A stretch of 64,000 nt of DNA from Minisyncoccia bacterium. GTDB lineage: Bacteria; Patescibacteriota; Minisyncoccia; UBA6257; 2-01-FULL-56-20. The position numbers were made by a program, and so were the translations under genes. The stretch is from NCBI GenBank assembly GCA_050015515.1, contig JBEKBG010000002.1, forward strand, positions 18,777-82,776, written 5' to 3'. Positions within the stretch are counted from its first letter, which is position 1. Each line of letters begins with the position of its first letter. The notes under the pieces are model-generated. The model was not told the DNA's origin. It searched no databases and worked only from the letters and a program-made list of their open reading frames with translations. This document shows, piece by piece, positions 2,401 through 30,516 of this stretch.

Positions 2401-2441
2401 CTTTTGTATTTATAAAAGATTAAAAAATTATGAAAAACTTT

Positions 2442-2469
2442 TTGACATTACGCGCGTGAATAATACAAT
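2442..2469 (+). promoter_or_regulatory. sigma70-type promoter TTGACA-N16-TACAAT; -10 ends 7 nt before ATG (leaderless mRNA)
   Basis: TTGACA 2442-2447, TACAAT 2464-2469, ATG at 2476. Confidence 0.55.
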
Positions 2470-4256: not shown

Positions 4257-4320
4257 CATCATTATCATACACTTAGACGATAATCAGTCAAATAACTTTT
4301 AATGATTTTTTAATGTTTTG

Positions 4321-4817: not shown

Positions 4818-6935
4818 ATGCCCCGACAATATTCCATCGAGAAGACCCGCAACATCGGCATCATCGCGCACATCGATGCGGGTAAGACGACCGTCAGTGA
4901 ACGCGTGCTTTTTTATACCGGCGTTTCGCACAAGATCGGCGAGGTGCACACGGGCGACACGGTGATGGATTGGATGGAGCAGGAACGCGAGCGCGGCATC
5001 ACGATCACGAGCGCCGCGACGACCGCGTTCTGGACGCCCACGTATCACGCCGCGGGTCCCGACCATAAAAACTTCGAGCACCGCATCAACCTGATCGACA
5101 CTCCGGGCCACATTGACTTTACCGTGGAGGTAAAGCGCTCGCTGCGCGTTTTGGACGGCGCGGTCGTCGTATTCGACGGCGTCGCCGGCGTGGAGCCGCA
5201 GTCGGAGACCAACTGGCGCTACGCGGACGATTACAAAGTGCCGCGCATCTGCTTTATCAACAAGCTCGACCGCGCCGGCGCGGACTTTGAAAAGAGCTTC
5301 AAGTCCATCCTTGACCGCCTCACCCAGAACGCGATCCCGATCCAGCTGCCGATCGGCACCGAGGCGAACTTTAGCGCGGTCGTGAACCTGCTCGAGAACA
5401 AGGCGTATACCTTCGAAGGGGAGCACGGCGAGAATATCGTAGAGATCCCGATCCCGGCAGATATGATGGAGACGGTGGCAAAGCATCGCCATGATCTCAT
5501 CGAAAAGATCGCGGAGAACGACGACATCGTGATGGCGAATTACTTGGACGGAAAAGAGATCTCACTCGAGGACCTTCGCAAGACGTTACGCAAAGGCGTC
5601 ATCGCAAACACGATCGTGCCGGTCATGTGTGGTTCGGCGCTCAAGAACAAAGGCGTGCAGTTTATGTTGGATGCCGTCATCGAATACCTGCCGTCGCCGG
5701 CGGACATGCCGCCGATCATGGCGCATGACGAAAAGACGGGCGAAATTGTGCCGGTCAAGCTTACCGACGAAGAGCACTTTGCGGGTTTGGCCTTCAAGAT
5801 CGCAACGGATCCGTTCGTAGGAAACCTGGCGTTCTTCCGCGTCTATGCCGGCGTCCTTAAGAAAGGCTCGTATGTGTATAACTCCACGAAGGGTCAGCAG
5901 GAGCGCGTCAGCCGTATCGTCCGCATGCACGCGAACGACCGCGAAGAAGTGGACGAGGTCTACTCCGGCGAGATCGCCGCAATCGTGGGCTTAAAGGGCA
6001 CCACCACCGGCGACACATTGTGCGATCCGGATCACGCCGTCATTTTGGAAAAGATCACGTTCCCGGAGCCGGTCATCGGGTTGCGCATCGAACCGAAGAC
6101 AAAAGCGGACCAGGAGAAGATGGGCATTGCATTGCATCGCTTGGCGGAAGAAGATCCGACGTTCCGTGTGGAAGGCGATAACGAGACGGGGGAGACGATC
6201 ATCTCCGGCATGGGCGAATTGCACTTGGACATCATCGTGGACCGCATGAAGCGCGAGTTCAACGTCGGCGCAAACGTGGGTCGGCCGCAGGTGGCATACC
6301 GCGAAACGATCACGGCGGAAGCCGAGGGCGAAGGCAAGTACATCAAGCAATCCGGTGGACGCGGTCAGTACGGTCACGTTAAGTTGCGCGTAAAGCCGGG
6401 AGAAAAAGGCTCGGGATTCGTGTTCGTTGACGCAATCAAAGGCGGTTCCATTCCGAAAGAATTCATCAACCCAACAGAGAAAGGCGTCAAAGAAGCGATC
6501 GATAAAGGTATTGTCGCCGGCTATCACATGGTAGACGTGGAGGTAGAGCTCTACGATGGTTCGTTCCACGAGGTGGACTCTTCCGAAGCGTCATTCAAGA
6601 TCGCGGGTTCCATGGCATTCCAGGACGCAGCCAAGAAAGCCAAGCCGGTCATTCTCGAACCGATCATGAAGATCCAGGTCATCGTGCCGGACAACTTCAT
6701 GGGCGAGGTCACGGGCAACGTCAGCGGCAAGCGCGGCGCCATCGAATCGATCGACGATCGTCCGGGTCAGCTCAAGGTGGTGAATGCCAAAGTGCCGTTG
6801 TCCGAATTGTTTGGTTACGCTACCGAGCTTCGCTCGATGTCACAGGGGCGTGGTTCATTTACGATGGAATTTGATCACTACGAGGCGGCACCGCGCAATG
6901 TGACGGAGCAGATTATTGAGGGGAAGAAGCGCTAA
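4818..6935 (+). CDS. fusA: elongation factor G
   Basis: [17 protein letters not shown], full EF-G domain order; 705 aa; about 12-aa insertion after switch region. Confidence 0.97.
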
Positions 6936-7059
6936 AACAATATAGGGCACATGCTTTTGAAAGGACGGCGTTCCAGCCTGCTGGCTGGCCGCCTTGGCTC
7001 TCGCCGCCTTCGCGGCTCCGAGACACCTTTCAAAAGCATGTGCCCTATGTTGTTTTAGC
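6931..7059. repeat. long palindromic element, family 1 (34-bp arms plus conserved about 60-nt core)
   Basis: Arms GCTAAAACAATATAGGGCACATGCTTTTGAAAGG / reverse complement (1 G-T mismatch); 5' arm contains the fusA stop codon; core ACGGCGTTCCAGCCTGCTGGCTGGCCGCCTTGGCTCTCGCCGCCTTCGCGGCTCCGAGAC. Confidence 0.8.
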
Positions 7060-7151
7060 GACCCGTTTCAGAGTGATCTGCGGCACGGTGTTCTTGGGCC
7101 GGAGATGAAGGTAGTCTAGCGAATTAATAAGTGCTAACATGTTAAATATAG

Positions 7152-7883
7152 ATGAAAAAAACACCCTCAAAAATCAAGGTTATTGATCTATTTTGTGGTA
7201 TAGGAGGCTGGATCGGGGGGACGCGACCGGACAACGCTCGCTTCGTTCCGCCACCGGTGGATGACATGAAGCGTTCTCTTTCGGATCTCGAGAGTTTTAT
7301 GTATGCGGAAGATGCGACGCTGACCGTCATTAAGGCGGGTCTTTTGCATGCGCAATTTGAGACCATCCATCCGTTCCTTGATGGTAATGGAAGAACGGGA
7401 CGGATGCTCATCACATTCTATTTGTGGAAAGAAGGGTTTTTGGAAAAGCCTGTTTTGTTTTTATCCTCATATTTTAAAGAACATCAAAAGGTCTATTACG
7501 AAAAGCTTTTGTGCTATCACGAGGGAAAGGTTTCTGAGTGGATTGAATTCTTTTTGGATGGGGTTATTGAGATCGCCAATGAAGCAATCGATATTGTTGG
7601 GAAAATAACGAAGCTTAGAGAAGGGGATACGGAAAAGGTTCAAGGCCTTGGCAAGCGCGCATCGGAAAGTGCAATGAAGGTATTGCCCAAGCTTTATGGC
7701 CAACCGATCGTCAACGTGAGTCTTGTTCAGCGGTGGACCGGTTTTACCCGTGCCGGAGCACAAACCGTCATTGATCGGTTTATCGAGCTTGGCATTCTCT
7801 CCAAGAAGGATAAGGACAAGAAATATGGGCAGTCTTATATTTATAAGAAATACGTGGGCTTATTTTCTGATAGCGCCGCGTAG
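7152..7883 (+). CDS. Fic/DOC family protein (HPFxDGNGR motif) with C-terminal wHTH-like region
   Basis: AQFETIHPFLDGNGRTGRMLITFYL matches the Fic active-site motif HxFx(D/E)GNGRxxR; short N-terminal region suggests possible 5' truncation. Confidence 0.65.
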   Translation: MKKTPSKIKVIDLFCGIGGWIGGTRPDNARFVPPPVDDMKRSLSDLESFMYAEDATLTVIKAGLLHAQFETIHPFLDGNGRTGRMLITFYLWKEGFLEKPVLFLSSYFKEHQKVYYEKLLCYHEGKVSEWIEFFLDGVIEIANEAIDIVGKITKLREGDTEKVQGLGKRASESAMKVLPKLYGQPIVNVSLVQRWTGFTRAGAQTVIDRFIELGILSKKDKDKKYGQSYIYKKYVGLFSDSAA

Positions 7884-7933
7884 TTTGCGTTGGAGCGCAG
7901 CGAGGACTCCTGTGCGGGCGAGGGCGCTTCGCG

Positions 7934-7998
7934 ACCGTGCCGAAATCCAACCCTTCACGGGGAAGATGCTTCTTTATCTCAACTGCCGCGATTGCGGC
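7934..7998 (+). promoter_or_regulatory. partial duplicate of SAM-I riboswitch 3' half plus terminator hairpin
   Basis: GACCGTGCCGAAATCCAACCCTTCACGGGGAAGATGCTTCTTTATCTCAACTGCCGCGATTGCGGCATTTTT is about 90 percent identical to 9318-9372 in the complete riboswitch. Confidence 0.45.
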
Positions 7999-8090
7999 AT
8001 TTTTAGTTCCTTTCTTTGGGGGTATCGTTGTCACTATCCCTGCGGCGATCGTGGGGATCATTTTAAGATTAAAACCTCATTAAAAGAGTT

Positions 8091-8119
8091 TTGACTTTGG
8101 TACTGGGTGGGCGGACAAT
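8091..8119 (+). promoter_or_regulatory. promoter TTGACT-N17-GACAAT, -10 ends 7 nt before ATG 8126 (leaderless)
   Basis: TTGACT 8091-8096; the same AAGTTTTGACTTTGG promoter module recurs at 10441 and 17742. Confidence 0.45.
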
Positions 8120-8125
8120 GATGAT

Positions 8126-8980
8126 ATGGAAAAGAAAAAAAGAGAACAGAATACTCATCCGACGATCTTTGAAGAGAAAGAGGTTCGAAGAACCTGGCAT
8201 GATGAAAAGTGGTATTTCGTTATAGCAGACGTGGTGCAGATTCTTACCGATTCGAAAGATGTTCAGGGGTATATTAAGGATATGAGACGGCGAGATCCGG
8301 AGCTATCCCAAGGGTGGGGGCAAATTGCCACCCCCCTTGGGATTGAGACCGCTGGAGGAAAGCAAAAAATGAATTGTGCTAACTTGGAAGGCATCTTTCG
8401 TATTATTCAATCCATTCCTTCCCCAAAGGCGGAGCCATTTAAGCGCTGGCTCGCCAAGGTCGGCAAGGAAAGGATCGAGGAAATCGCAGACCCCGAATTG
8501 GCGGTAACGCGGACTAAAGAGATTTACGACAAAAAAGGATATCCAAAAGATTGGGTTGATAAGCGCATGCGAGGCATTGCCGTCCGAAATACGCTTACCG
8601 ACGAGTGGAAATCGCGGGGAGCGTCGATGAGCTTTGAGTTTGCGATTTTAACCGACGAGATTTACAAGGCGGCATTTGATAAGACCGCGAAAGAATATAT
8701 GAAGCACAAAGGGTTGGATAAAAAAGCGGGTGATAATTTGCGCGACCATATGGGAGACATTGAATTGATTTTGACGATGCTTGGAGAAGCGACGACGACC
8801 AAGCTCAGCACGGAAAAAGATTCGCATGGATTGGAAGCGTTAAAGAATGATGCGCAAATTGGGGGAGGCGTCGCCGGCAGGACTCGAAAAGATATCGAAC
8901 GGCAAACGGGCAAAAAGGTAATTTCAAATGAGAATTTTAAAAGCCGGAAGCTTTTGAAAGGCAAGGAAATTCGCAAGTAA
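8126..8980 (+). CDS. Bro-N domain protein / phage antirepressor-like
   Basis: FEEKEVRRTWHDEKWYFVIADVVQILTDSKD fits the Bro-N (KilA-N-like) pattern F..E.R....DGE.WF.A.DV..LG; 284 aa. Confidence 0.55.
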   Translation: MEKKKREQNTHPTIFEEKEVRRTWHDEKWYFVIADVVQILTDSKDVQGYIKDMRRRDPELSQGWGQIATPLGIETAGGKQKMNCANLEGIFRIIQSIPSPKAEPFKRWLAKVGKERIEEIADPELAVTRTKEIYDKKGYPKDWVDKRMRGIAVRNTLTDEWKSRGASMSFEFAILTDEIYKAAFDKTAKEYMKHKGLDKKAGDNLRDHMGDIELILTMLGEATTTKLSTEKDSHGLEALKNDAQIGGGVAGRTRKDIERQTGKKVISNENFKSRKLLKGKEIRK

Positions 8981-8981
8981 T

Positions 8982-9251
8982 ATGTCCCAGAAAACCAGGA
9001 TCAAAAAGAATTTAGCGCTGTCGGCAGATTTCAACGCGTATATTTTGAGAAATCCGAAAGTGATGGATAAATTACCCAGGAAGGTCTGTATCGTTTTTGA
9101 AGACAAAAAGGACCAAATTTTTTCGCGGGCAAACTTGAACACGGCAAAAGATATTGCGAATAGCGAGAAATGTTTCGTTGCGAGTAAGTCTGGGTCTCGC
9201 TGGTCTTTGCGTCCGCTCGCCGTATGCTATAATCATCTTACAACCGAATAG
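8982..9251 (+). CDS. hypothetical small protein
   Basis: 89-aa ORF immediately after the Bro-N gene; no recognisable motif. Confidence 0.25.
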   Translation: MSQKTRIKKNLALSADFNAYILRNPKVMDKLPRKVCIVFEDKKDQIFSRANLNTAKDIANSEKCFVASKSGSRWSLRPLAVCYNHLTTE

Positions 9252-9397
9252 CCCATCAAGAGAGTGGAGATGCTAAGGGATCTGGCCCGATGCTCCGCCC
9301 GCAACCGATCGACGATTCGACACGGTGCGAAATCCAACCCTTCACGGGGAAGATGCTTCTTTTAGATCAACTGCCGTGTAGGCGGTTGTTTTTTTGC
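9252..9397 (+). promoter_or_regulatory. SAM-I (S-box) riboswitch with intrinsic terminator, upstream of metK
   Basis: CCATCAAGAGAGTGGAG..GGGATCTGGCCCGATG..CCGCCCGCAACC..GGTGCGAAATCC..GGGGAAGATGC matches S-box conserved blocks (ATCAAGAGAGG, GGGAYTGGCCCGATGA, GCAACC, GGTGC.AATTCC, GAAGATG); terminator CAACTGCC-GTGTA-GGCGGTTG plus T7. Confidence 0.8.
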
Positions 9398-9455
9398 TCT
9401 TTTACAACTTGGGTCGAAAAGCTGGGTTACCAATTAATTAATCAATCAAACTATT

Positions 9456-10409
9456 ATGATAAAAACTGCGGAGTTTGTTTCGCCTCGGCATCCGGATAAA
9501 TTGTGCGACCTCATTGCGGATTCACTGCTCGATGCGTATCTGGCGGGGGATCCAAAGAGCCGCGTGGCGGCGGAGGTGATGGGTGGCCATGGGCACGTCA
9601 CGATCTCGGGGGAAGTGACGAGCGCGGCGTCGGTGGATATTCCAATTGTCGTGCGTTCCGTGCTGGGCTATGATGCGGCGGTGCATGCGTATCTTGTGCG
9701 GCAGAGTCCGGAGATCGCGCAGGGCGTGGATACGGGCGGCGCGGGAGATCAGGGCATTATGATCGGCTATGCCACGCGGGAGACGCCGTCGTTCCTACCG
9801 TTGGAATATGTGTTGGCGCGGGAGCTGTGCCGGAAGTTGTATGCCGTGTATCCGTATGACGGGAAGACGCAGGTAACGGTGGATGGTGATCGCGTGACAT
9901 GCGTCGTCGCAAGCTTTCAGAACGCTCCATCTGCCGCGCTTGAGGCGCTTGTGCGCGCATCCATAGTGGCGGACGAGTATCTGGTGAATCCCGCGGGCGA
10001 ATGGTCGCTCGGCGGCTTCGATGCGGATTCGGGGATCTCCGGGCGCAAGATCGTGATCGATAATTACGGGCCGGAGATCGGCGTGGGCGGCGGATCGTTC
10101 TCGGGCAAGGATCTCACCAAAGTGGATCGGTCGGGCGCATACATCGCGCGGCGCATCGCGGTGGATTACCTGGCGCGATTTTCGTCCGCGCGGGCGGTGC
10201 GTGTAAAGCTCGCGTACGCCATTGGCAAGCCACAGCCCGTCATGGCCGTGGCGGAATTAAGCGAGGGTTCCGGCGGTGTTCGCGTTGTGCCCGTTTCTGA
10301 TTACGACCTTACTCCTTCCGGCATCGCCACGCTTTTGAAGTTCTCTTCCGTGCGCTGGGCCGACACCGCCGCGTGGGGACACTTTGGGAGGGAGTTCAGC
10401 TGGGGATAG
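9456..10409 (+). CDS. metK: S-adenosylmethionine synthetase (short form, 317 aa)
   Basis: HPDK near N-terminus, GAGDQG, GGGSFSGKD..KVDRSGAY, GHFGR motifs. Confidence 0.85.
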   Translation: MIKTAEFVSPRHPDKLCDLIADSLLDAYLAGDPKSRVAAEVMGGHGHVTISGEVTSAASVDIPIVVRSVLGYDAAVHAYLVRQSPEIAQGVDTGGAGDQGIMIGYATRETPSFLPLEYVLARELCRKLYAVYPYDGKTQVTVDGDRVTCVVASFQNAPSAALEALVRASIVADEYLVNPAGEWSLGGFDADSGISGRKIVIDNYGPEIGVGGGSFSGKDLTKVDRSGAYIARRIAVDYLARFSSARAVRVKLAYAIGKPQPVMAVAELSEGSGGVRVVPVSDYDLTPSGIATLLKFSSVRWADTAAWGHFGREFSWG

Positions 10410-10450
10410 TGCCAGCTACTGTCGGAGATTAAAAAAATATTAAAAAAGTT

Positions 10451-10479
10451 TTGACTTTGGCGTTGAATTGCTTAGAATA
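10451..10479 (+). promoter_or_regulatory. consensus promoter TTGACT-N17-TAGAAT for sRNA 10486..10570
   Basis: TTGACT 10451-10456, TAGAAT 10474-10479. Confidence 0.55.
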
Positions 10480-10485
10480 GAAACA

Positions 10486-10570
10486 TGCTCGTAGGGCGTC
10501 GGCAGCTCCTGCCCAATCGGCTCACGCTGGTAGCGAGCATATCAAATAACCGTCACATGGCGGTTTTTTG
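10486..10570 (+). ncRNA. candidate convergent small RNA overlapping the 3' end of 10553..10963
   Basis: About 85-nt transcript with nested stems (ATGCTCG…CGAGCAT), terminator hairpin AACCG-TCACATGG-CGGTT plus TTTTTT (10565-10570); overlaps the last 18 nt of the minus-strand gene. Confidence 0.35.
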
Positions 10571-10963
10571 ATTCTTTGGTTTTGTATCATAAATACTGAA
10601 GAAATGTTTTTCTTTGCCTTCGATTTGCCTTAAGACGATCGTGATCGTGGCATCGCCATATGTCTTGGTCAGTTTCCAGAAATCGGCGTGCGGTTTCTTT
10701 ATCACCGCCATGTCGTGCCGTTTTGAGAAATGGACAGTTTCTCCTTCCCCATGAGAAATTTTTACCTCTTGGCTTTCAATAATTTCTTTCGCATAAGGCA
10801 GGAGACGAAGCCTTCTCGCTTGCTCTCGCAGTGAACGCCGCTTCCCATTTTTCCGCATAAGATGTTGGATTCCGGCATTGGTAAAAGCAACATAGTCGTT
10901 CAGCGCCGAACACCAAACGCGGCCGACATTTTTATAAGAATCTCCTATGTTTTTATCCTCCAT
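10553..10963 (-). CDS. hypothetical protein, paralog of 3749..4174
   Basis: 136-aa basic protein sharing VW..LN..F..AG..HLM.K.GKRR…FW…IVLRQ…KHFFSI with the first copy. Confidence 0.6.
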   Translation of the reverse strand: MEDKNIGDSYKNVGRVWCSALNDYVAFTNAGIQHLMRKNGKRRSLREQARRLRLLPYAKEIIESQEVKISHGEGETVHFSKRHDMAVIKKPHADFWKLTKTYGDATITIVLRQIEGKEKHFFSIYDTKPKNQKTAM

Positions 10964-11028
10964 TCGGCCACGATAGCAGGAAGGGGATTAAGAGAATCTT
11001 AAAAGCGTTATAATAAATACACACATCC

Positions 11029-11496
11029 ATGCACCTCTCCTATATCCTTATCCCGCTTGTTACGATCCTCGTCGCTTTTGTCGGCGGCCGGCTGACGGTG
11101 GCGTCGGTCAAGACGTGGTACGTTGGGTTGCGCAAGCCGTCGTGGACGCCGCCGGGCGCCGTGATCGGTACGGTGTGGACGGTGCTTTATATCCTCGCCG
11201 CGCTATCGGCGCTTATCGTTTGGAATCTTCCTGATGGCGCTTCGGTGCCGGCGATGATTGCCGTGCTCTTTTATTTGAACGCGGCGGTGAATGTTTTCTG
11301 GAGCTATGTGTTCTTTTACCTCCACAAGATGGGGCCGGCGATTTGGGTGTGCCTGTTCCTGGATATCACGATCATCCTGTTGATTCAGTTCATCGCGCCG
11401 ATTTCGCCGCTCGCCGCATGGCTTTTGGTTCCGTACGCGGCCTGGGTGACCTTTGCCTCGTATCTTAACTATCGGGTGTGGGAGATGAATCGGTAG
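11029..11496 (+). CDS. tspO: TspO/MBR family tryptophan-rich sensory protein
   Basis: WYVGLRKPSWTPPGAVIGTVWTVLYIL…LVPYAAWVTFASYLN; five TM helices; 155 aa. Confidence 0.8.
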   Translation: MHLSYILIPLVTILVAFVGGRLTVASVKTWYVGLRKPSWTPPGAVIGTVWTVLYILAALSALIVWNLPDGASVPAMIAVLFYLNAAVNVFWSYVFFYLHKMGPAIWVCLFLDITIILLIQFIAPISPLAAWLLVPYAAWVTFASYLNYRVWEMNR

Positions 11497-11707
11497 GCAT
11501 TTGATGTATTAAAGAAAGAAAAGCGCCGCAATGTCCATTTTACTTATCGAATTGCGGGGCAAGGACGATCAGGGTCTTCAATGACAATGATTTTTATCCC
11601 CAGTTTTGGCCGCCTTTTCCACAGCTTATTCACTTTGTTGGGGTTTTAAGGCGTTTTTTAGCGCTTTTAGGGCTTGACGAGATTTTTACACGGCGTATAT
11701 TTGTAAA

Positions 11708-12329
11708 CAGTAGTTTGAAATTGTTGGATGCGACCAAGAGAAATTCCGAAAGGAATTGTCACGGTTAGGTTCTTACCAAAAGAACAAAACTGTGACCGGA
11801 TCGAAAACATGGAACATGCAAGCGTTCAACCGTCTGACGGATGGAACGTCGAAGTATGATTCAAAGGATCGATCGGGACCTATTGGTCGAACAAAAAACA
11901 GGAAAGCGTGTAGTTCGCTAAAAGCTTCGGCTTAAAGCTGACGAAACGCAAGGTAAGCGGACAGTTCGGGTAACCGGACGAGGAAAGTCGAGTTCTGCAG
12001 GTTAAACCCCTGAGGAACAACGAATCCGCGGAAGATCTTTCCGTTCATCGCGCTGCGGCCCATGGCCACGCGCATCGAGCGAAAAGGATCTTTCCTTTCC
12101 ACCCTTCTGCCTTTGGGGTAGCTGAGTAACCCAAAATTTGATGGCGTTTACGCCATCGGGTTCAGAACGAAAGTTCTGTGTGCGGGAGATTCCTGTTTTT
12201 CCAACTTAAACTCAGGAGTACTTTGAGTGGCAGAAGCTTTGCTTCTTTCGAGAAGCAGATGCTTCTCCACTCAACGTATGACACCCCGGCCGGAGAGCGC
12301 ATTCATGCTCTCCGGCCACTCCTTTTTTT
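11708..12329 (+). ncRNA. ORF-free structured transcript of unknown identity (promoter at 11671-11700, terminator at 12288-12329)
   Basis: Promoter TTGACG-N16-TATATT; about 620 nt with no ORF longer than 68 aa; multiple GNRA/UUCG-capped hairpins (AAATTCC-GAAA-GGAATT, AAGC-UUCG-GCUU); terminator GGCCGGAGAGC-GCATTCAT-GCTCTCCGGCC followed by T7. Confidence 0.3.
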
Positions 12330-12337
12330 ATGGGGAT

Positions 12338-12366
12338 TTGACACGGCCGCCGGTTTCCCATACAAT
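12338..12366 (+). promoter_or_regulatory. tuf promoter TTGACA-N17-TACAAT with about 130-nt leader
   Basis: TTGACA 12338-12343, TACAAT 12361-12366; leader contains hairpin ACAGCT-CTTGA-AGCTGT-TTTTC. Confidence 0.55.
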
Positions 12367-12505
12367 TGCTTGGTAAATCCCTGAAGGGAAAAAAGAAAGT
12401 CACTTAGGTCGATTGGCTATAGATTTTCACAGCTCTTGAAGCTGTTTTTCTTCGGAATAGGGACGCTCACGCAGTATAAAAAATAAACATTAATTTTTAA
12501 AAAAT

Positions 12506-13705
12506 ATGGCAGAAAAAGAAAAGTTCGATCGGTCCAAGCCGCACCTTAACGTAGGTACGATTGGTCACGTCGATCATGGCAAGACCACGTTGACCGCGGC
12601 CATCACTCACGTGTTGTTCATGAAGGGCTGGACAAAAAAAGAAGAGAACGTAAATCAGATCGACAACGCTCCAGAAGAGAAGGCGCGTGGTATCACTATC
12701 GCGTTGCATCACTCGGAATATAATTCGGAGAAGCGCCACTACGCGCACGTGGATGCTCCGGGACACGCAGACTATATTAAGAACATGATCACCGGTGCCG
12801 CCCAGATGGACGGCGCGGTGCTCGTCGTCGCCGCGACCGACGGCCCGATGCCGCAGACGCGCGAGCACATCTTGCTCGCTCACCAGGTCGGTGTGCCGAA
12901 CATCATCGTGTTCCTCAATAAAGTTGATATGGTGGATGATCCGGAATTGATCGATCTCGTGGAATCCGAAGTTCGTGAGCTTCTCACGAAAAATGGATTT
13001 GACGGCGAACATGCGCCGGTCATCCGCGGTTCCGCATTGAAGGCATTGAACGCAACCTCGGCCGATTCTCCGGATGCCAAGCCGATCCTCGATCTCGTGA
13101 AGGCGATGGATGATTACTTCCCAGATCCGGTTCGCGAACTCGACAAGCCGTTTCTTATGCCGATCGAAGACATATTCTCGATTGAAGGCCGTGGCACGGT
13201 CGTCACGGGACGCATTGAGCGCGGCAAGGTGAAGGTGAACGAGGAAGTTGAGGTCGTTGGCCTTAAGCCGACCCAGAAGACCGTCGTCACCGGAATCGAA
13301 ATGTTCAACAAGAGTTTGGACGAAGGCCAGGCAGGCGATAACGCCGGTTTGCTCCTCCGCGGCCTCAAGAAAGAGGACGTGGAGCGCGGACAGGTTTTGG
13401 CCAAGCCGGGCAGCGTGACCCCGCACGCGGAGTTCGAAGGCGAGATCTATGTGCTTTCGAAAGAAGAGGGCGGCCGCCACTCTCCGTTCTTTAAGGGCTA
13501 CAAGCCGCAGTTCTACATCCGCACGACCGACGTGACGGGCGAGGTTACCCTTCCGGAAGGAATGGAAATGGTCATGCCGGGTGATACCGTCAAGATTACC
13601 GTCAAGCTTATCACCCCGGTCGCTTTGGAAGACAAGATGCGTTTCGCCATCCGCGAGGGAGGCAAGACCGTTGGCGCCGGCGTCGTGACCAAAATAATTA
13701 AGTAA
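12506..13705 (+). CDS. tuf: elongation factor Tu
   Basis: [27 protein letters not shown]; 399 aa; AT-rich upstream with no SD. Confidence 0.97.
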
Positions 13706-13816
13706 GCAACATAAAACCGCCTTACGGGGACGGGTCGCGGCCTGCTAGCCGCGCCCTAACGCTCGGCACCTTCGTGCCTCCGCGATTCCCCTTAAAGGCG
13801 GTTTTATATTGCTTAC
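13702..13816. repeat. long palindromic element, family 1 (divergent member) after tuf
   Basis: Arms GTAAGCAACATAAAACCGCCTT / AAGGCGGTTTTATATTGCTTAC include the tuf TAA; core has CGCGGCCTGCTAGCCGCG and GGCACCTTCGTGCC hairpins homologous to the family-1 core with compensatory changes. Confidence 0.75.
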
Positions 13817-13911
13817 GTTTTTAAATTTTGTCACGACGCCGCGCGTCTCCGGTTCTCTTCGGGAGGTGTTTTTGTTCGAGTGTTGAGGAGATACTCGGGC
13901 CTGAGCGACAT

Positions 13912-14316
13912 ATGTGGTATTATAGATTCATGCAAATAATTGGAATTATTGCAGTCGTCCTTCTTGTTGGGATCTTCATTGTATTTATAAAGCAAAGTAC
14001 TAATAACTATTCCAAAATTTCTTTGGTTGGTGCCTTGATCGTATCTTTGGGGTTGATAGCTTCCGGATCTGGTGCATCAAACGTCATTCCGACAAGTTTG
14101 GCATTCGTATTTTTTGCGATCTTAATCATTTCCTTATTGGCTATGGTTATATTCGCCGTCGTGGGTGCAATAACGGATCCAAGAATTTCAAAGGAGGGGA
14201 CGTTGCCTATTATTTGGAATAAGATCATTCCCATAGGAATAGCAGCGGCCCTCTTACTTGTTATAGGACTCTTTCTTTATTTGATATTTATCGTTGGAAC
14301 GGCATTCAGGGGATAG
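13912..14316 (+). CDS. hypothetical multi-TM membrane protein
   Basis: MWYYRFMQIIGIIAVVLLVGIFIVFI… four hydrophobic segments; start chosen at internal ATG 13912. Confidence 0.4.
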   Translation: MWYYRFMQIIGIIAVVLLVGIFIVFIKQSTNNYSKISLVGALIVSLGLIASGSGASNVIPTSLAFVFFAILIISLLAMVIFAVVGAITDPRISKEGTLPIIWNKIIPIGIAAALLLVIGLFLYLIFIVGTAFRG

Positions 14317-14353
14317 CTTGAGTGATTTGAACTTGGTCCAATGCTCCGCATAA

Positions 14354-14379
14354 ACAAAAAACCCGTTGCCGGGTTTTTT
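14354..14379. terminator. bidirectional intrinsic terminator
   Basis: AAAAAAA-CCCG-TTGC-CGGG-TTTTTT. Confidence 0.6.
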
Positions 14380-14721
14380 GCGGATCCAAACATAATGCTG
14401 CGTGGTCCGAGGTGACACCATAACCATGATAACAATCCCAAAATATTCGTCAAAACATTTTTAATCTTTATTTAATGTTTTTATTACCGTTGCGCGGGGG
14501 TGCGAGGACTTGCGCCTCGTGGATCCATAGCGTCACCTCGGACCCAGCACTATGCCACCCCCGCTGCAGTCTATAAAATAGTGCATTAAAACTGTCTAAA
14601 GTCATCTGCGGCTTCACTTTTCGTCACGATGTCGTGTACCTCTATAGAATGCTTTTAAGGTTGATTTTAAAATGGGTTCAAGATAGCTTATAGGTAGTTC
14701 TACGAAACGAAAAGGAGTTAT

Positions 14722-15981
14722 ATGGGACAGAGACCCAGAAACGTTGCTTTGCTGGGATTTGGTACGGTGGGCTCCTGTGTGGCCCGCATTCTGATGGAGC
14801 GTTCGGATCTGTCGGAATATATCCGGTTGACGCATATCTTCAACCGGAAGGTTGAACGGAAACGCGTTGATTGGGCGTCGAAGTCCGTTATTTGGACGGA
14901 GGATATCGATGCGGTCTTCGCATCAAAGCCGGACGTCGTCATTGAACTTGTCGGTGACGTGAATTCCGCGGAAGCGTGGATCCGCAGGGCGTTGCTCCTG
15001 GGGATGGACGTGGTTACCGCCAATAAGGCGCTTCTCGCCACCAAGGCCCCGGAGCTTCTCCGTCTGGCGACCGAGCATCATGCGCGGCTTTCTTTTGAAG
15101 CAGCGGTAGGCGGCGGGATACCGATCATACGGGGTATCCATGAAGGATTGGCGGGGGATACGTTCACCGGCGTGGTCGGCATCCTTAATGGGACATGTAA
15201 TTATATTCTGAGCCGTATGGCCGCGACGGGCGAATCGATGGACCTCGTCCTCAACGAGGCCAAGAGTTTAGGGTTCGCCGAAGCCGATCCAACCGCCGAT
15301 GTGGATGGCCATGATGCCGCTGCGAAGCTCGTACTATTGGTCGGTGTCTCGTTCAAACGGCATCTGCCGCTGGCCCACGTCAATCCCCGGTCTATCAGGG
15401 GAGTGGCCGATGTGGATTTCAAATACGCCCGCGAACTTGGATATACCATCCGTCAGCTGTCGTGTGTACAAAAACAAGAAGATGGATTTTGTGCCTTCGT
15501 GGGTCCGGCATTGGTCTCGCTCGCTTCCGCTTTTGCGGGGAACGAGGGGGCCAATAATCTGGTCACGACGATGGGTGCGCACGGCGGTAGAAATAATTTC
15601 CAAGGTGCCGGCGCGGGAGGAGATCCGACCGCGGTAGCGGTCGTATCCGATCTGATCGCGTTATTGCGTAACGGCCAAAACGTTCCGGAAGAAGATCTCT
15701 GGAACCCGGGATGCATCATCGCTTCGCCGTCGCGGGAGTACTATCTCCGCTTTGTGGTAAAGGATCGGCCCGGTATCGTTGCGGCCATCACCTCTGCGCT
15801 TTCAACACAAAGCATCAACATCGGCGCAGTCGTCCAATTGCCGGGATATCCGAAAGACCATCTGTCGTTCGTCGTAACGGTCGAGGCATGCGAGGAGAAT
15901 ACACTCGAGAGAGCGCTGGAGGAAATCGGCACAATGGATTTCCACGCACAAACGCCACTCGTGCTTCCGATCTGGAATTGA
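14722..15981 (+). CDS. hom: homoserine dehydrogenase
   Basis: N-terminal NAD-binding LLGFGTVGS, central catalytic domain (VVTANKALLAT), C-terminal ACT domain; AAGGAG 6 nt upstream. Confidence 0.9.
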   Translation: MGQRPRNVALLGFGTVGSCVARILMERSDLSEYIRLTHIFNRKVERKRVDWASKSVIWTEDIDAVFASKPDVVIELVGDVNSAEAWIRRALLLGMDVVTANKALLATKAPELLRLATEHHARLSFEAAVGGGIPIIRGIHEGLAGDTFTGVVGILNGTCNYILSRMAATGESMDLVLNEAKSLGFAEADPTADVDGHDAAAKLVLLVGVSFKRHLPLAHVNPRSIRGVADVDFKYARELGYTIRQLSCVQKQEDGFCAFVGPALVSLASAFAGNEGANNLVTTMGAHGGRNNFQGAGAGGDPTAVAVVSDLIALLRNGQNVPEEDLWNPGCIIASPSREYYLRFVVKDRPGIVAAITSALSTQSINIGAVVQLPGYPKDHLSFVVTVEACEENTLERALEEIGTMDFHAQTPLVLPIWN

Positions 15982-16102
15982 TGATGAACACGGCCCCGCG
16001 CGGAGAACTAACATTCCGCGCGGGGTTTTTCTTTTATGGATATCCCAATAAACCACGGGTTTGACACTTTCATGAAGTTTGCTATACTTTCTTGGTACTC
16101 AA

Positions 16103-16426
16103 ATGGCCAAAACAGACGTTCCCCAAAAACTGCGCTTGCGCATAAAGTCCTACGATCACAAACTGATCGACAATTCGGCACGCCAGATCATCGAGGCCGC
16201 CGAGCGGAACGATGCGAAAGTGACGGGGCCGATCCCGCTTCCCACGGAAGTAAAGCATTACACCGTCAACCGTTCGACCTTTGTCCACAAGGACGCTCGC
16301 GAGCAGTTCGAGCTCCGCATTCATAAGCGCCTCGTCGAAATATTGAATCCCAACCAGAAAATCATCGAATCACTTTCGAACCTGAATCTTCCTGCGGGCG
16401 TGGATATAGAAATAAAGATGGTTTAA
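16103..16426 (+). CDS. rpsJ: 30S ribosomal protein S10
   Basis: [23 protein letters not shown]…VTGPIPLPT; separated from rplC by a 3.9-kb insertion. Confidence 0.9.
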
Positions 16427-16507
16427 AACAAAAGCCCCCTCCTTTGCAAACGGAAATGCCACGTAGGAACGTGACCGTTTGCAAAGGAGGGGGCTTTTGT
16501 TTTAAAC
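16421..16507. repeat. long palindromic element, family 2, overlapping rpsJ stop
   Basis: Arms GTTTAAAACAAAAGCCCCCTCCTTTGCAAACGG / reverse complement (33 bp, perfect); arm contains GTT-TAA of rpsJ; core AAATGCCACGTAGGAACGTGA. Confidence 0.8.
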
Positions 16508-16693
16508 CGTGGACACCATAAGAAGAAGATTCAGAGAGCTTTACTGTCCATAAATGTTCGATCCCCGCGTCTCTTATGAAACACGGGGATCAGGGGAAAA
16601 TCCCGAATTGTTCCTTAATTGTATCGCGCCACCAGGATAAATCAAAAAGTTTTTAATAATTTTTTAATCTTTGAAAATGGTATAGTGAAGAAA

Positions 16694-17698
16694 ATGAAAG
16701 GATATATTGAGCATCCGGGGAAGGCGGTGGAGACGGGCGGAAAGTTCGAACACGTGATGGCGATTACGCTTGACCCGCGTTCGGGATATAAAAATGGCGT
16801 TATCCGATGCATCACGAATCGCTCCGGCGACGTGGAGACTTCCGGCTATATTGATAGAAGCGTGTTGCACAAAGTGAACGGAGATTCTTTGGAACATTTT
16901 GTTATTGGAGAACAGTTGGAAATTCACAGACAGGAGGAGATTATAAAAAAACTTAGCGTGGCAGGCCTCGATCTTCTTGGCCTAGAGGATCCCGATATTT
17001 GGATCGATGAGAAGGCCGGGCTGACACATCTGTATTTTACGATGCCATTCCATGACAGTAAGCCAGAGGATAATGGCCGTGTGCATCTTGGCCACGCCGT
17101 CGGTAAGGATCTCGATTCTTTGGAGATGACCATGCCGGTCTTGATGGGCGAAGTTCATAAAGCAGCGAAAGAACTTTCCATCGCGCCGGTCAATAAGCAT
17201 GGATTCCGTTTTAATCTCGTGGAATCTTCGATCAAGGAAAATGACTTTACCTATTCAACGGTGCGCGTCGCCGTCGCGGAAGATATGGGGAAGCCGTGGA
17301 AGTTCGGTGAGGCGGTATTCCATCCGAAAGAACAGAGCATTCCGTGGATTGGCGGTCACGCTTCGCCGGGGCCGTTGCTGCCCAAAGATTTCATCGATGT
17401 CGGCGAGGGGAAATTGCTGGGCATTATGAACGGCCGTGAAGCGAACCAGCGGGTGGGCGACGAGATAAAATATGGCATGTTCTCGGTCGGATTGTTCATC
17501 TACGATTACGAGCATGGGAAGATCGATTGGGTTTCGCCCGAGCCGTTCATTCGGGACAGCGAGGCGCGGACGATCACATTTGCGAGCCAGTTTGTGGAGC
17601 AGGGAAAGGGGAGCGGCATTCTCTACGCGCACGTGGACGATTCGTTCGTGCGGGCGTATACGCTGAACGCGGAGAAAATAAGGGAGTTGCTGCCGTAG
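16694..17698 (+). CDS. hypothetical protein (possible beta-propeller glycosidase/phosphorylase-like fold)
   Basis: 334-aa ORF from internal ATG 16694 (MKGYIEHPGK…); no definitive motif. Confidence 0.45.
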   Translation: MKGYIEHPGKAVETGGKFEHVMAITLDPRSGYKNGVIRCITNRSGDVETSGYIDRSVLHKVNGDSLEHFVIGEQLEIHRQEEIIKKLSVAGLDLLGLEDPDIWIDEKAGLTHLYFTMPFHDSKPEDNGRVHLGHAVGKDLDSLEMTMPVLMGEVHKAAKELSIAPVNKHGFRFNLVESSIKENDFTYSTVRVAVAEDMGKPWKFGEAVFHPKEQSIPWIGGHASPGPLLPKDFIDVGEGKLLGIMNGREANQRVGDEIKYGMFSVGLFIYDYEHGKIDWVSPEPFIRDSEARTITFASQFVEQGKGSGILYAHVDDSFVRAYTLNAEKIRELLP

Positions 17699-17745
17699 CT
17701 GTGGCCATAGGCATAGCGAGTTATTAAAAGATCATTAAAAAGTTT

Positions 17746-17773
17746 TTGACTTTATTTTTCTAACTTCTAAAAT
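17746..17773 (+). promoter_or_regulatory. promoter TTGACT-N16-TAAAAT, leaderless start at 17780
   Basis: -10 ends 17773, ATG 17780. Confidence 0.5.
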
Positions 17774-17779
17774 TGGGGG

Positions 17780-18058
17780 ATGATCAAAAAAGAAAATAAT
17801 AAGGATTCATCGGAGAGCGTTCTTTGCGCGCTAGGAAATTTGGATAAAAAATTTGATAAAAGATTCGATGCGGTTGATAAGCGGCTCGACATTCTCGAAG
17901 TGAGGATGGAAAATTTGGAAAGGTCTCATCGTAATACGGGCGTCCAGCTTGATAAGCTAGAACATAAATTTGACCTTTGTATTGAGGGATTTGGTGGACT
18001 GAACGAGCGAACTTCCAGGATCGAAGGAAGAGTTAGTATTCTTGAAGGGCTCGCATAG
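17780..18058 (+). CDS. small coiled-coil protein, hypothetical
   Basis: 92 aa with heptad repeats; similar in style to 2476..2691. Confidence 0.4.
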   Translation: MIKKENNKDSSESVLCALGNLDKKFDKRFDAVDKRLDILEVRMENLERSHRNTGVQLDKLEHKFDLCIEGFGGLNERTSRIEGRVSILEGLA

Positions 18059-18088
18059 TGTGGCTTTGGGCTGTGATATAATAGTGCT

Positions 18089-18631
18089 ATGGATGAAGAG
18101 AATAAGTCGGAACCGCAGAATAGCAGTGAAGCGGAGCCGCACCGTTCGCATGTGCAGGTTTTTGGTATGGACGTGAACACATCGTCCGAATCCAAAGAGG
18201 ATTGGCGCGCGCGCAAGGACGAGTGGAAAAAACAGCATCACGAACAGCGGGATCAGCAGCGGGCAGAGCACCGCGAGCAACGGAAGGCGCAGCATGAGCA
18301 ATGGCGTCACGACCATCATCACGAAGGTGGTCTGTTCTTCGGGATGATCGTACTCTTTGTGGGAGTCGTGGCACTGCTCTACACGATGGGCCTCGTCTCG
18401 CACGCGTTCTGGTACGTGATCCTGCCGTTCTGGCCGATCCTGCTCATCCTGTGGGGCGCGAGCATCATCCTTGGCCGCCACTGGTTCGCGCGGTTCATTG
18501 TTTTTCTCCTCGCGCTCGCGTTTCTTATCGTCGTCATCTTTTATGGCCTCGTCAAAACCGATTCGCCGGTCGTGAGCTCGCTTTCGCCCACCGTCGTTTC
18601 GGCAATCCAAAATACCCACACGCAATACTAA
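18089..18631 (+). CDS. membrane protein with charged His-rich N-terminus and 4 TM segments
   Basis: N-terminus rich in H/Q/R/E (…HHEQRDQQRAEHREQRKAQHEQWRHDHHHEGG) followed by LFFGMIVLFVGVVALLY… TM helices. Confidence 0.45.
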   Translation: MDEENKSEPQNSSEAEPHRSHVQVFGMDVNTSSESKEDWRARKDEWKKQHHEQRDQQRAEHREQRKAQHEQWRHDHHHEGGLFFGMIVLFVGVVALLYTMGLVSHAFWYVILPFWPILLILWGASIILGRHWFARFIVFLLALAFLIVVIFYGLVKTDSPVVSSLSPTVVSAIQNTHTQY

Positions 18632-18643
18632 TAAGACACTCTT

Positions 18644-19186
18644 ATGGGAGGAATCATCGTCGGCATCATCTTGATACTTATCGGCATCAGTGCCCTCACC
18701 GGCATTCCGTTTTTTGGTTTCCTCTTCGCCATCGTTCTTATCGCAATCGGCGTCCGCATGATCGCGCGGCGTTCGGTGCATAGCGGATGGCGCTGGGACG
18801 ATTATGACCACGATCATGACCATAACCATACGCACAAAACCGCGTCGGGCGAACGGAGCATCGACGAGGTCGCCATCTTCAGCCCGCTCAACAAATCCTA
18901 CACCGCTGAGCATTTTAAAGGAGGGAAGATCGTCATGGTCTTCTCCGGCGGAGAAGTGAATCTTACCCAGATCAAAACCGACGAGACCGAGATTCACCTG
19001 GAAGTCTCATCCATCTTCAGCGGCATTGAGATCGTCGTCCCCAAGGATTGGAAAGTAAAATCCAGCGCCAACGTCTTCCTCGGTAACGTAGACACGAGCG
19101 CTGCCCAAGGCGGTGACGGCACCACAACGCTGATCATCCACGGCGAAGCCGTCTTCGGGGAGATTGAGGTGCGGAAACAGAAGTAA
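18644..19186 (+). CDS. LiaF-like (DUF2154-type) membrane protein
   Basis: Two N-terminal TM helices, DHDHDHNH linker, C-terminal beta-rich domain with GG/VFLGNVD patterns as in LiaF/YvqF C-terminal domains. Confidence 0.5.
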   Translation: MGGIIVGIILILIGISALTGIPFFGFLFAIVLIAIGVRMIARRSVHSGWRWDDYDHDHDHNHTHKTASGERSIDEVAIFSPLNKSYTAEHFKGGKIVMVFSGGEVNLTQIKTDETEIHLEVSSIFSGIEIVVPKDWKVKSSANVFLGNVDTSAAQGGDGTTTLIIHGEAVFGEIEVRKQK

Positions 19187-19202
19187 TTATAATATTGAAG
19201 TC

Positions 19203-19892
19203 ATGGACGATGTCGCGAAGCAGTATAACGGATTTTCCAAAACCTATAGCGACAATCTTCAGGTTCAAGATGAAGTTGGGAATAGGGTGTTCTACGATGT
19301 CCTATCATCGATTGATATAAAAGAGAAAAAACTTTTGGATATTGGCTGTGGGGATGGTTCCGATCTTGTTAACTTTGAGAAAATGGGAGCGGTTTCATTT
19401 GGCATCGAGCCATCCGAAGAATTTGTAAAAGCGGCAAAAGAAAAATCACCACAACTGAATATTATAGTCGGGGCAGGGGAGAGCCTTCCGTTTTCCGACA
19501 AGGAATTTGATGTCGTCGTATCAAAATATGCATTACAGACTTCACCGAATGTTCAAAAAATTTTGAGCGAGGCGGCAAGAGTTTTAAAATCCGGAGGTTA
19601 TTTTATTTTCCTTTCAAAGCATCCAGTCAGACAGTTTCTGGAAAAGATCGAAACTTACAAGAAGCCTCAAGATATTAATTATTTCAATCAGAAAATCATT
19701 GATTCATTTATTTATGAGAAAAAAATTCATCTGCGCGAACCATCTCATACCCTTTCGGAATACTTTTCCAAAGACGTCTTCAAAAATTTCGATCTGCTCG
19801 ATTTTATAGAAGGCAGTGATTTTCCAGCATCCGAACAGATAAATGGGTATACCTATCCGACATTTTTTGTAGCAAAGCTTCTCCGTCGTTAA
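19203..19892 (+). CDS. class I SAM-dependent methyltransferase
   Basis: LDIGCGDGSDLVNFEKMG (motif I), VVSKYALQ (motif II region). Confidence 0.75.
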   Translation: MDDVAKQYNGFSKTYSDNLQVQDEVGNRVFYDVLSSIDIKEKKLLDIGCGDGSDLVNFEKMGAVSFGIEPSEEFVKAAKEKSPQLNIIVGAGESLPFSDKEFDVVVSKYALQTSPNVQKILSEAARVLKSGGYFIFLSKHPVRQFLEKIETYKKPQDINYFNQKIIDSFIYEKKIHLREPSHTLSEYFSKDVFKNFDLLDFIEGSDFPASEQINGYTYPTFFVAKLLRR

Positions 19893-19930
19893 GCGGCTTC
19901 GTATGCCAAGTGGCGATGTGGCCCTGCCTC

Positions 19931-20053
19931 CTTTCTTATGCTTTTTGAGGGACTATCGGAGGCCGCGAAGGCGGCCGAGATGGAGCGCCCGCGCAGCAGC
20001 GCGGGACGCGTGCCCGAAAAAAGCATAAGAAAGGAGGAAGGGCCGGAGCCCAT
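19931..20053. repeat. long palindromic element, family 1 (inverted core orientation)
   Basis: Arms GCCCTGCCTCCTTTCTTATGCTTTTT / AAAAAAGCATAAGAAAGGAGGAAGGGC; core reverse complement contains GGCCGCCTTCGCGGCCTCCGA and CCCGCGCTGCTGCGCGGG hairpin. Confidence 0.75.
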
Positions 20054-20327
20054 TTGACATTACACCCCGCTTTGCTATAATCGTCATCAAGGTTTGCTCG
20101 GACAGTTTTTATGCAAATATTTACCTCTTTAGCCTCGGTCTACGAACGCGAAATGCATTCGCGATCAGGCGCAGAAAAACGGTCGCCGTTTTCTCTGAAT
20201 CCCGTATAAAAGCGGGGTAGGTAGGTTGGTTTTGTAAAAAACTCCGGTTCCAAGCCGGAGTTAATCAATTTTTACTGGATTCCGAGCGTGCTCATTCAAA
20301 GGAGTGCCCCTCCGGACGATCAAGAAA
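20054..20327 (+). promoter_or_regulatory. promoter TTGACA-N16-TATAAT plus about 240-nt leader with attenuator-like hairpin upstream of rplC
   Basis: TTGACA 20054-20059, TATAAT 20076-20081; leader hairpin AACTCCGG-TTCCAA-GCCGGAGTT followed by AATCAATTTTT, reminiscent of the L4-regulated S10 leader. Confidence 0.45.
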
Positions 20328-29004: not shown

Positions 29005-29033
29005 TCCTTGTTTGTTTAATATAAGATAAAGAC

Positions 29034-30412: not shown

Positions 30413-30516
30413 TATGCCTGGTGACTAGAGAAAGAAGTATTGATAAACGATTGACGGATTTTCTAATGAAAGATATAATACCGCCAGGCTTCAAATAGGT
30501 TCTAGGAGGAAAGATC

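Follow-up and report, generated by a model that had tools for sequence, protein, structure and literature searches.

Giant palindromes and the Family-1 core

The window analysed here is a 64-kb stretch (64,000 nucleotides) of the genome of a Minisyncoccia bacterium (Patescibacteriota; GenBank assembly GCA_050015515.1, contig JBEKBG010000002.1, positions 18,777 to 82,776), in which fusA, tuf, rplC, rplO, secY and secD lie among other genes (gene names are from Pfam). An inverted-repeat scan found 11 giant palindromes in it (Table 1), five of which enclose the same structured core, Family-1 (F1), the subject of this report. Five such cores had been proposed in an earlier note on this DNA, and the covariance model with which we scored the window (R1) recovers exactly these five, at 57-82 bits, with the next match at 15 bits; the positions first given were broadly right and needed only small corrections (the copy upstream of rplC, for example, spans 19920-20044 and not 19931-20053).

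Each F1 element forms a three-way junction, in which a locus-specific stem of 22-36 bp (P1) opens into a core of ~61 nt composed of two hairpins: P2, with a TGCT loop, and P3 (GCCGC-CTTC-GCGGC), with a 3-nt bulge. The core comes to ~79 nt if its own inverted ends of 9-10 bp (TTTTGArGG/CCyTCAAAA) are counted. The inner 9-10 bp of the arms are semi-conserved, and their outer 20-25 nt are unrelated between copies. In the copy 3' of fusA, P1 is made by the 35-bp arms, P2 (6967-6993, loop TGCT at 6979-6982) reads GGCG-TT-CCAGCC-TGCT-GGCTGG-C-CGCC, and P3 (6999-7023) is a 9-bp hairpin with a CTTC loop (7008-7011) and the bulge at 7017-7019; the fold has a minimum free energy of -90.1 kcal/mol (z -12.4) and the copy scores 81.1 bits. 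Its 5' arm opens at CGC-TAA, where fusA ends with its final sense codon and its stop codon, and the distal part of its 3' arm is U-rich (TGTTGTTTT). The 5' arm of the secY copy includes the final secY codons and stop codon (GGCATAGAATAA), and the arms of the fusA, tuf and secY copies all begin inside or right past the stop codon.

The fusA and secY cores are identical at 57 of 61 positions, and all four differences lie in P2, where they form two compensated pairs (CCAGCC/GGCTGG versus CCGGTC/GACCGG), as the earlier note had described for this internal hairpin. The tuf copy is divergent, with P3 GGCAC-CTTC-GTGCC and P2 CGCGGC-CTGCTA-GCCGCG (its variants GGCACCTTCGTGCC and CGCGGCCTGCTAGCCGCG match those originally quoted), and its 3' arm is followed by TTTTATATT. 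Alone among the window's giant palindromes, the copy upstream of rplC lacks a U-rich 3' end; a sigma-70 promoter that fits the consensus at 12 of 12 positions, with an extended -10 TG, lies 10 nt past it (20054-20081). In the copy between the CYTH-domain gene and secD, P2 is wholly replaced by TTTTTC-TACT-GAAAAA, and an imperfect extension carries the arms to 60155-60322.

F1 is far beyond chance. The P3 17-mer matches the window six times, with 0.53 matches expected. Across 34 copies from many genomes, 90.3% of the paired cells are complementary, compared with 64.1% in shuffles (none of the 500 reached the observed value) and ~40% with the partners slid; double changes occur at 24 of the 25 base pairs, and P3 and both loops (TGCT and CTTC) are near-invariant. 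These figures uphold the initial view of the core as a conserved covarying structure and not repeat debris: instead of random, non-compensatory changes in the inner hairpins, copies across genomes show compensated pairs.

The chemistry of this pairing can be read from its exceptions. Of 633 cells in P2 and P3, 581 are Watson-Crick, 9 are G-T and 13 are A-C, while the arms of 18 palindromes have ~15 mismatches in ~540 pairs, among which, on the gene strand, four are of G-U and four of A-C type. F1 pairing is thus Watson-Crick only. Selection at the RNA level is expected to tolerate G-U and not A-C, and there is no such asymmetry. F1 folds equally well as single-stranded DNA, and a reversed copy folds well as RNA too.

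On the gene strand, 10 of the 11 giant palindromes (and four of the five F1 copies) have an A-rich 5' arm and at least five T in 8 nt of the distal 3' arm; the U-rich tract pairs with the A-tract, and the A-rich arm often includes the stop codon. The statement that no copy has a canonical U-tract is thus not borne out in four of the five, and the statement that these are not ordinary intrinsic terminators is weakened by the general polarity. With this polarity the arms look like intrinsic terminators, and, as far as their sequence goes, F1 palindromes at gene ends most likely act as a factor-independent terminator and 3'-end hairpin. A simple terminator scan does not call them because their loops are structured and 56-71 nt long, well outside the short loop (3-8 nt) of an intrinsic terminator. 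Short canonical terminators also occur in the window. The orientation of the core is independent of the A/T polarity of the arms. In L246, an 881-kb relative (L numbers designate loci from other genomes), a terminator at 17846-17891 has no core, yet its perfect arms of 21 nt mirror the stop codon of S10; such arms are therefore general to the hairpins of these genomes and not specific to F1.

The six other giant palindromes have perfect locus-specific arms of 22-34 nt and short conserved cores. The Family-2 (F2) core, TCACGTTCCTACGTGGCATTT, occurs in both orientations, the Family-3 (F3) core reads CTCGCTCC-GACGT-AAGC-ACGTC-CACTCGCT, and both families contain a ACGTnnnnACGT mini-hairpin. Relatives carry further core families (gacgagtcctcgtgga in L247; a 61-nt core at L106 1266-1392).

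Distribution, placement and turnover in Patescibacteria

A degenerate P3 pattern, scanned against one genome per species, gave 118 loci, 15 in Patescibacteria (the Candidate Phyla Radiation, CPR) and 103 outside it. All 15 match the covariance model, 12 of them at 60-88 bits and mostly with long locus-specific arms, and L050, L053 and L109 as variants with a short P1 (27-38 bits); the groups that bear F1 are Paceibacteria, Saccharibacteria, Minisyncoccia, Parcubacteria and Taylorbacteria. The non-CPR loci with the same P3 string (100 of the 103 were searched) reach at most 32 bits and have no arms, and viral contigs gave no match to the F1 pattern. In a pattern scan of metagenomes, the true F1 elements among the matches listed were L188, L189, L211, L220 and L142, and most others were chance matches in GC-rich soil contigs. 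Among the sequences retrieved, F1 appears restricted to Patescibacteria, and it is apparently undescribed. Rfam 15, at gathering and permissive thresholds, returned no family and no ribozyme for the window, the fusA copy, a Saccharibacteria copy or the 15 CPR loci, yielding for F1 only spurious miRNA-hairpin matches far under the gathering scores; searches of the literature, by topic as well as with literal DNA and peptide strings, gave no description of it. Hammerhead, twister, attC, dif and K-turn identities were ruled out by motif inspection.

The short-P1 variants (L050 730-807, L109 5912-5987, L053 2002-2077 and L142 7528-7603) have a P1 of 6-7 bp and a longer P2. In L050 and L109, TATAAT lies upstream of the variant, and downstream come a classical bidirectional terminator and a tRNA gene in convergent orientation. 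These variants could be stand-alone small RNA genes or the founder form of the F1 family. The complete 827-kb CPR chromosome L037 carries three F1 elements within 8 kb, which flank stable-RNA genes (852-974, 1883-1992 and 7120-7239; 3' of 5S, between 23S and 5S, and 3' of a tRNA).

Counted after orthologues were collapsed, F1 lies in sense orientation to transcription at approximately eight loci, in antisense at four and between divergent genes at one. The sense copies are those at fusA, tuf, secY and greA, in the M50-rpsL spacer of L247, and the three of L037 (23S, 5S and tRNA); the antisense copies are those upstream of rplC, between the CYTH-domain gene and secD, and in L074 and L188; and the copy between divergent genes lies upstream of dnaE in L240, L242 and L245. 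The antisense copy upstream of rplC is kept at the same site in four relatives (L189, L240, L245 and L248).

F1 also lies in frame inside protein genes of other CPR (Table 1), none of the five window copies being in coding sequence. Open reading frames (ORFs) were accepted only with backing from Pfam, from conserved motifs that could be recognised (IF-2) or from a source annotation (ComF); some in-house ORF calls across elements, as in L002, were spurious and were excluded. Pfam domains lie on both sides of the inserts, and the reading frame is constant for each orientation, so that every sense copy encodes SRPPSRPP and every antisense copy GGREGGRE or AGREGARE. The two Tgt proteins are 70% identical and carry F1 at the same codon position in opposite orientation; between SKF and LAKVDDDG, Tgt has a loop that varies greatly across CPR (hypervariable). 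Among 90% protein clusters we found only insert-bearing Tgt and DnaG, with no insert-free alleles. The arms of these genic copies cannot be terminators there.

Syntenic 21-kb loci collected via SecY and EF-G homologues showed how the same sites fare in relatives. Four-fold-site divergence from the window in secY is 0.32 in L240, 0.44 in L242 and L245, and 0.54 in L059; an early idea that the compensated changes of P2 were unusually fast between close relatives was dropped in view of this 32-54% divergence. The window, L240, L242, L250 and L059 all carry F1 at the secY site, with arms that differ per lineage (100% complementary in L240, L242 and L250); where the final secY codons differ by a synonymous ATA/ATC change, the 3' arm mirrors the difference. 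Another small palindrome occupies the site in L245, and a core of ~170 nt in L249. At the fusA site, F1 is found in the window, L247 and L248 (with arms of only 11 nt), and L246 has an F2 core identical to window 16454-16474. The tuf site has F1 in the window and L247 and F2 in L246, while tuf abuts rpsJ in L245, L248 and L249. At greA, F1 occupies the site in L242, in L245 and, with P3 enlarged, in the outgroup L249, whereas the window, L240 and L250 have an empty site; the outgroup being filled, F1 was therefore lost in the window's clade, and we dropped the empty site as evidence of insertion. The window, L240 and L250 have a palindrome at the L15-secY site, with a 3' arm that mirrors each genome's own L15 stop region; in L242, L245 and L249 the site is empty.

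Within a genome, cores are 0.93-1.00 identical (window fusA and secY, 0.93; L240 secY and upstream of dnaE, 0.97; L005 and L014, 1.00 or 61/61; L011 and L042, 0.97 or 59/61; L074 and L106, 0.93), compared with 0.44-0.93 for cores at orthologous sites. The secY copy of L240 bears the derived P3 (GGCGAC/GTCGCC) of its own dnaE-upstream copy and has, to judge by this subtype, been overwritten by it. L005 and L014 belong to a Saccharibacteria metagenome-assembled genome, whose F1 has the CPR-consensus form. Such homogenisation is how repeated, copied or gene-converted DNA behaves.

What the Family-1 element may be

We give about an even chance to the reading that F1 is a palindromic module held in the apex of terminator-type hairpins, indifferent to orientation, spread or converted within genomes, and with its pairing kept on DNA. 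A gene-end palindrome would then run from the stop codon and an A-rich tract through a GC-rich stem, the module and the returning stem to a U-rich tract. The module would be a passenger at the apex of a locus-specific hairpin, spread or homogenised by copying or gene conversion, open to loss or to exchange for another module, and tolerated in frame in essential proteins of other CPR, as are the Rickettsia palindromic elements (RPE). Intrastrand hairpin-templated correction or extension of quasi-palindromes on DNA would best account for the compensatory changes, since hairpin-templated copying would give "compensated" changes in one step and would also derive the arms from the flank; the pairing may in addition be kept by selection for a fold compact enough for the outer stem to close. 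Template-switch correction of quasi-palindromes and gene conversion from arm to arm are reportedly the subject of work by Ripley and by Lovett. Template-switch correction explains one-step compensated changes, perfect arms and the outward growth of palindromes by flank copying, although descriptions of it, from E. coli and other organisms, concern mutational hotspots and not a genome-wide terminator architecture.

Known repeats offer partial parallels. In RPE families the whole element is generally similar between copies, while F1 shares only its centre of ~61-79 nt, has locus-specific outer arms of 20-30 nt and is tied to terminator-like hairpins. The likeness lies in being a short (~100-150 bp) palindromic non-coding repeat that also enters essential genes in frame and adds a conserved peptide: RPE are palindromic repeats found both between genes and in frame in unrelated essential genes of reduced-genome, host-dependent bacteria (PMC10969869). 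F1, which comes from a different taxon and would not be expected to share sequence with RPE, is probably best regarded as an analogue of RPE and not a member. SPRITE, BOX and RUP of S. pneumoniae, the repetitive extragenic palindromes and bacterial interspersed mosaic elements (REP/BIME), Correia/NEMIS and ERIC are abundant non-coding palindromes at gene ends that can serve as terminators or mRNA stabilisers (in part from PMC10969869). F1 is likewise an extragenic palindromic repeat at gene ends; those families have conserved ends, often with TA or other target duplications, or a conserved GTAG with a REP-associated tyrosine transposase (RAYT), whereas F1 has unique arms, no target-site duplication and no associated gene seen here. 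REP/BIME, as 20-40-nt imperfect palindromes with the conserved GTAG and a RAYT gene, differ from F1 in size and architecture (the F2 and F3 cores, looked at beside the GTAG criterion, contain ACGTAGGAACGT).

F1 resembles bidirectional intrinsic terminators in lying directly past stop codons with an A-tract, a GC-rich stem and a U-tract in the correct gene-strand polarity. It is unlike them in that its stems of 22-36 bp are perfectly complementary through the A/U tracts and even the stop codon, and in that one copy lacks the U-tract and others lie between divergent genes or in coding sequence. With the attC sites of integrons it shares a locus-specific imperfect palindrome at the 3' end of ORFs whose structure is kept more than its sequence. 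In an attC site the outer core sites (RYYYAAC/GTTRRRY) are conserved, the centre varies and some bases are extrahelical, and such sites stand in cassette arrays beside an integrase. F1, with its conserved centre and variable ends, is the inverse; its arms are perfectly paired and do not end in sequences of the RYYYAAC/GTTRRRY type, and it lies in ribosomal-protein operons.

Several observations weigh against this favoured reading. P3 and the loops are near-invariant across distant CPR classes, and cores at orthologous sites (87% identical at secY, for example) are far more conserved than four-fold sites (44% diverged); together these mean real selection on the sequence, by a trans-acting protein or a host function, and the passenger model names no agent for it. 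The conservation shows P3 and the loops to be probable recognition sites of some partner, either a mobility enzyme or a host factor. We saw no target-site duplication and no datable F1 insertion event, and neither the genes called in the ~21-kb syntenic loci nor the scanned proteins of the window include a transposase. Terminator activity is a prediction from sequence that sits poorly with the 19920 copy, which has no U-tract, and with the dnaE copies between divergent genes in L240, L242 and L245. The orientation count of 8:4 is too small to exclude a sense bias, and the polarity of filled and empty sites is clear only at greA (a loss) and L15-secY (a gain, though not of F1), being ambiguous elsewhere.

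The foremost alternative, which we think unlikely, is that F1 is a dedicated functional RNA, such as a protein-binding platform in the 3' untranslated region, a terminator or a processing element, with the genic and antisense copies as by-products. Loops and junctions that are conserved while the stems covary are classically the mark of such an RNA, copies persist at secY, fusA, greA and upstream of rplC across the 32-54% four-fold-site divergence, the three L037 copies flank 23S, 5S and a tRNA, and the sense orientation is somewhat commoner. The earlier note took the covariation to indicate a selected RNA or DNA structure and raised a possible small ribozyme; a strand-specific functional RNA such as a ribozyme is not what the compensatory changes point to: about a third of the independent loci are antisense and equally conserved, G-U pairs are rare and in no excess, Rfam has no match, same-genome copies are homogenised, and copies lie in frame in genes. 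At the same sites relatives have other cores (F2, a 17-nt loop, the 170-nt core), and near-perfect arms also occur in coding sequence, where selection for a terminator is impossible. F1 behaves not like a ribozyme or riboswitch but like an RPE- or MITE-like element (MITE, miniature inverted-repeat transposable element), unusual in combining unique arms with a shared core, and with a likely role in termination.

Quite unlikely, in our estimate, is a mobile element that builds its own arms, in which a module of ~79 nt inserts and, in the course of insertion or shortly thereafter, copies 12-30 nt of the adjacent target in inverted form (an inverted target duplication), making terminators de novo at A-rich gene ends. 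This would explain why near-identical cores of one genome have unrelated arms, in coding sequence also (L005/L014, 61/61; L011/L042, 59/61), where no pre-existing palindrome is expected. It would also explain why the native final codons and stop codon reappear, mirrored, in the distal 3' arm, which tracks synonymous or lineage-specific changes (ATA/ATC at secY, GTTTCATAA versus AAAATAA at L15, CTTGCT versus CTCGCG in Tgt), and why the F1 of L248 has 11-nt arms beside an unmirrored ancestral flank that L246 does mirror. The core-less terminator of L246 speaks against it, as its arms are equally long, perfect and stop-mirroring, so that the building of arms need not require the module; the empty site at greA is a loss; neither an F1 insertion that can be dated nor a candidate enzyme was found; and compensatory evolution under selection could yield the same pattern.

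A functional site at the level of DNA, a hairpin or cruciform in single- or double-stranded DNA that serves recombination, replication, DNA uptake or chromosome organisation, strikes us as improbable. The independence of orientation, Watson-Crick-only pairing, the stable single-stranded DNA fold, the nearly invariant 23-nt P3 across CPR and the copies between divergent genes as well as at 3' ends are all consistent with it. No associated recombinase or nuclease was seen at any locus, however, and sites are lost or replaced without obvious consequence; placement is mostly at gene ends with terminator-like polarity, and the coding-sequence insertions are hard to square with a positional function. 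An ordinary MITE with terminal inverted repeats and target-site duplications, or an assembly artefact or chance palindrome, is already refuted by the data and extremely improbable: the multiple copies, palindromic shape and semi-conserved inner 9-10-bp ends agree with a MITE, but its terminal inverted repeats are common to all copies and the long arms of F1 are not shared, no direct repeats flank any window copy (inspected at all five) and none appear in filled-versus-empty alignments, the same elements stand at orthologous loci of independent JGI, ENA and NCBI assemblies, including complete long-read chromosomes, and the statistics are far past chance.

A bolder idea, which we rate as rather unlikely, is that Patescibacteria carry a new kind of DNA element, a two-hairpin module of ~60-80 nt with no recognisable transposase that builds locus-specific inverted repeats of 20-35 bp from its flanks, makes terminators and in-frame peptides, and has a P3 recognised by a conserved CPR protein. 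Its arms may be built by inverted target duplication or by hairpin-templated growth of the palindrome.

Neighbouring features and wider meaning

Table 1. Palindromes and promoter motifs of the window, and stretches of other CPR loci that bear Family-1 copies in frame in genes
Feature	Locus	Position	Strand	Details
F1, 3' of fusA	window	6930-7060	+	arms 6930-6964 / 7026-7060, 34/35 complementary; core 6965-7025
F1, 3' of tuf (divergent)	window	13695-13823	+	strict arms 13702-13723 / 13795-13816; 56.8 bits
F1, between methyltransferase gene and rplC	window	19920-20044	core on -	67.3 bits
F1, 3' of secY	window	30294-30418	+	arms 30294-30325 / 30387-30418, 29/32 complementary; core 30326-30386, 61 nt; 81.8 bits
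F1, between CYTH-domain gene and secD	window	60175-60302	core on -	perfect 36-nt arms; 56.9 bits
F2 palindrome	window	16420-16508		34-nt perfect arms; 21-nt core AAATGCCACGTAGGAACGTGA; F1-like architecture
F2 palindrome	window	53980-54066		core opposite in orientation to the 16420 copy
F2 palindrome	window	55596-55684		34-nt perfect arms
F3 palindrome	window	49639-49720		25-nt perfect arms; 32-nt core CTCGCTCCGACGTAAGCACGTCCACTCGCTCA
F3 palindrome	window	58978-59051		22-nt perfect arms; just upstream of tRNA-Leu (59080-59161)
Giant palindrome between rplO (L15) and secY	window	28937-29005		25-nt perfect arms; unique 19-nt loop
AGATTAAAAnnnnATTAAAAAnnTTTTGAC motif	window	2417-2451, 8066-8100, 10426-10460, 17721-17755	+	
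AGATTAAAAnnnnATTAAAAAnnTTTTGAC motif	window	4287-4319, 14449-14481, 16641-16673, 40045-40077	-	
In-frame F1, SMC	L011	3001-5523		arms 28/29 complementary
In-frame F1, DnaG	L005	3301-5130		arms less regular
In-frame F1, Tgt	L106	1938-3428		arms 28/30 complementary
In-frame F1, Tgt	L239	218-1474		
In-frame F1, IF-2	L042	7111-7998		
In-frame F1, ComF-family protein	L014	1437-2207		arms less regular

The window has further features of its own. A conserved AT-rich motif of ~30 nt (AGATTAAAAnnnnATTAAAAAnnTTTTGAC), found on both strands, has its end within the -35 box of predicted promoters and resembles a UP-element or promoter module common to them. The str/S10 operon departs from its classical order in two places (7152-12500 and 13828-19892), with a Fic-domain gene and others between fusA and tuf, and a methyltransferase gene and others between tuf and rplC; in L245, L248 and L249 rpsJ lies directly 3' of tuf, and no rpsJ was identified beside rplC in the window. 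The gene block between fusA and tuf also holds an exact 35-nt direct repeat (CGAAATCCAACCCTTCACGGGGAAGATGCTTCTTT) at 7941-7975 and 9328-9362, 1.4 kb apart. A 16S rRNA gene occupies 56603-58141 with no 23S within the 5.8 kb that follow, and the rRNA genes are therefore unlinked. In L246 (15342-16791) only EF-Tu domains 2-3 are called as a gene, of 215 aa, and the N-terminal GTPase part may be interrupted or mis-assembled.

Patescibacteria make up a large share of bacterial diversity, and their genomes of ~1 Mb are regarded as repeat-poor. Eleven giant palindromes in 64 kb would correspond to ~150-200 per Mb if the density holds genome-wide; neither Rfam nor the literature searched yielded a match to them, and they probably define how transcription units end in Patescibacteria. 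F1 in addition creates peptide insertions in core proteins (SMC, DnaG, IF-2 and Tgt), and the palindromes can mislead gene calling, spurious ORFs being called across them. The F1 covariance model offers a simple marker for CPR contigs. Unique arms around a shared core point to a mechanism acting on DNA and testable in the cultivable Saccharibacteria, which are genetically tractable (PMC10633639), either hairpin-templated copying or a hairpin-targeting mobility.

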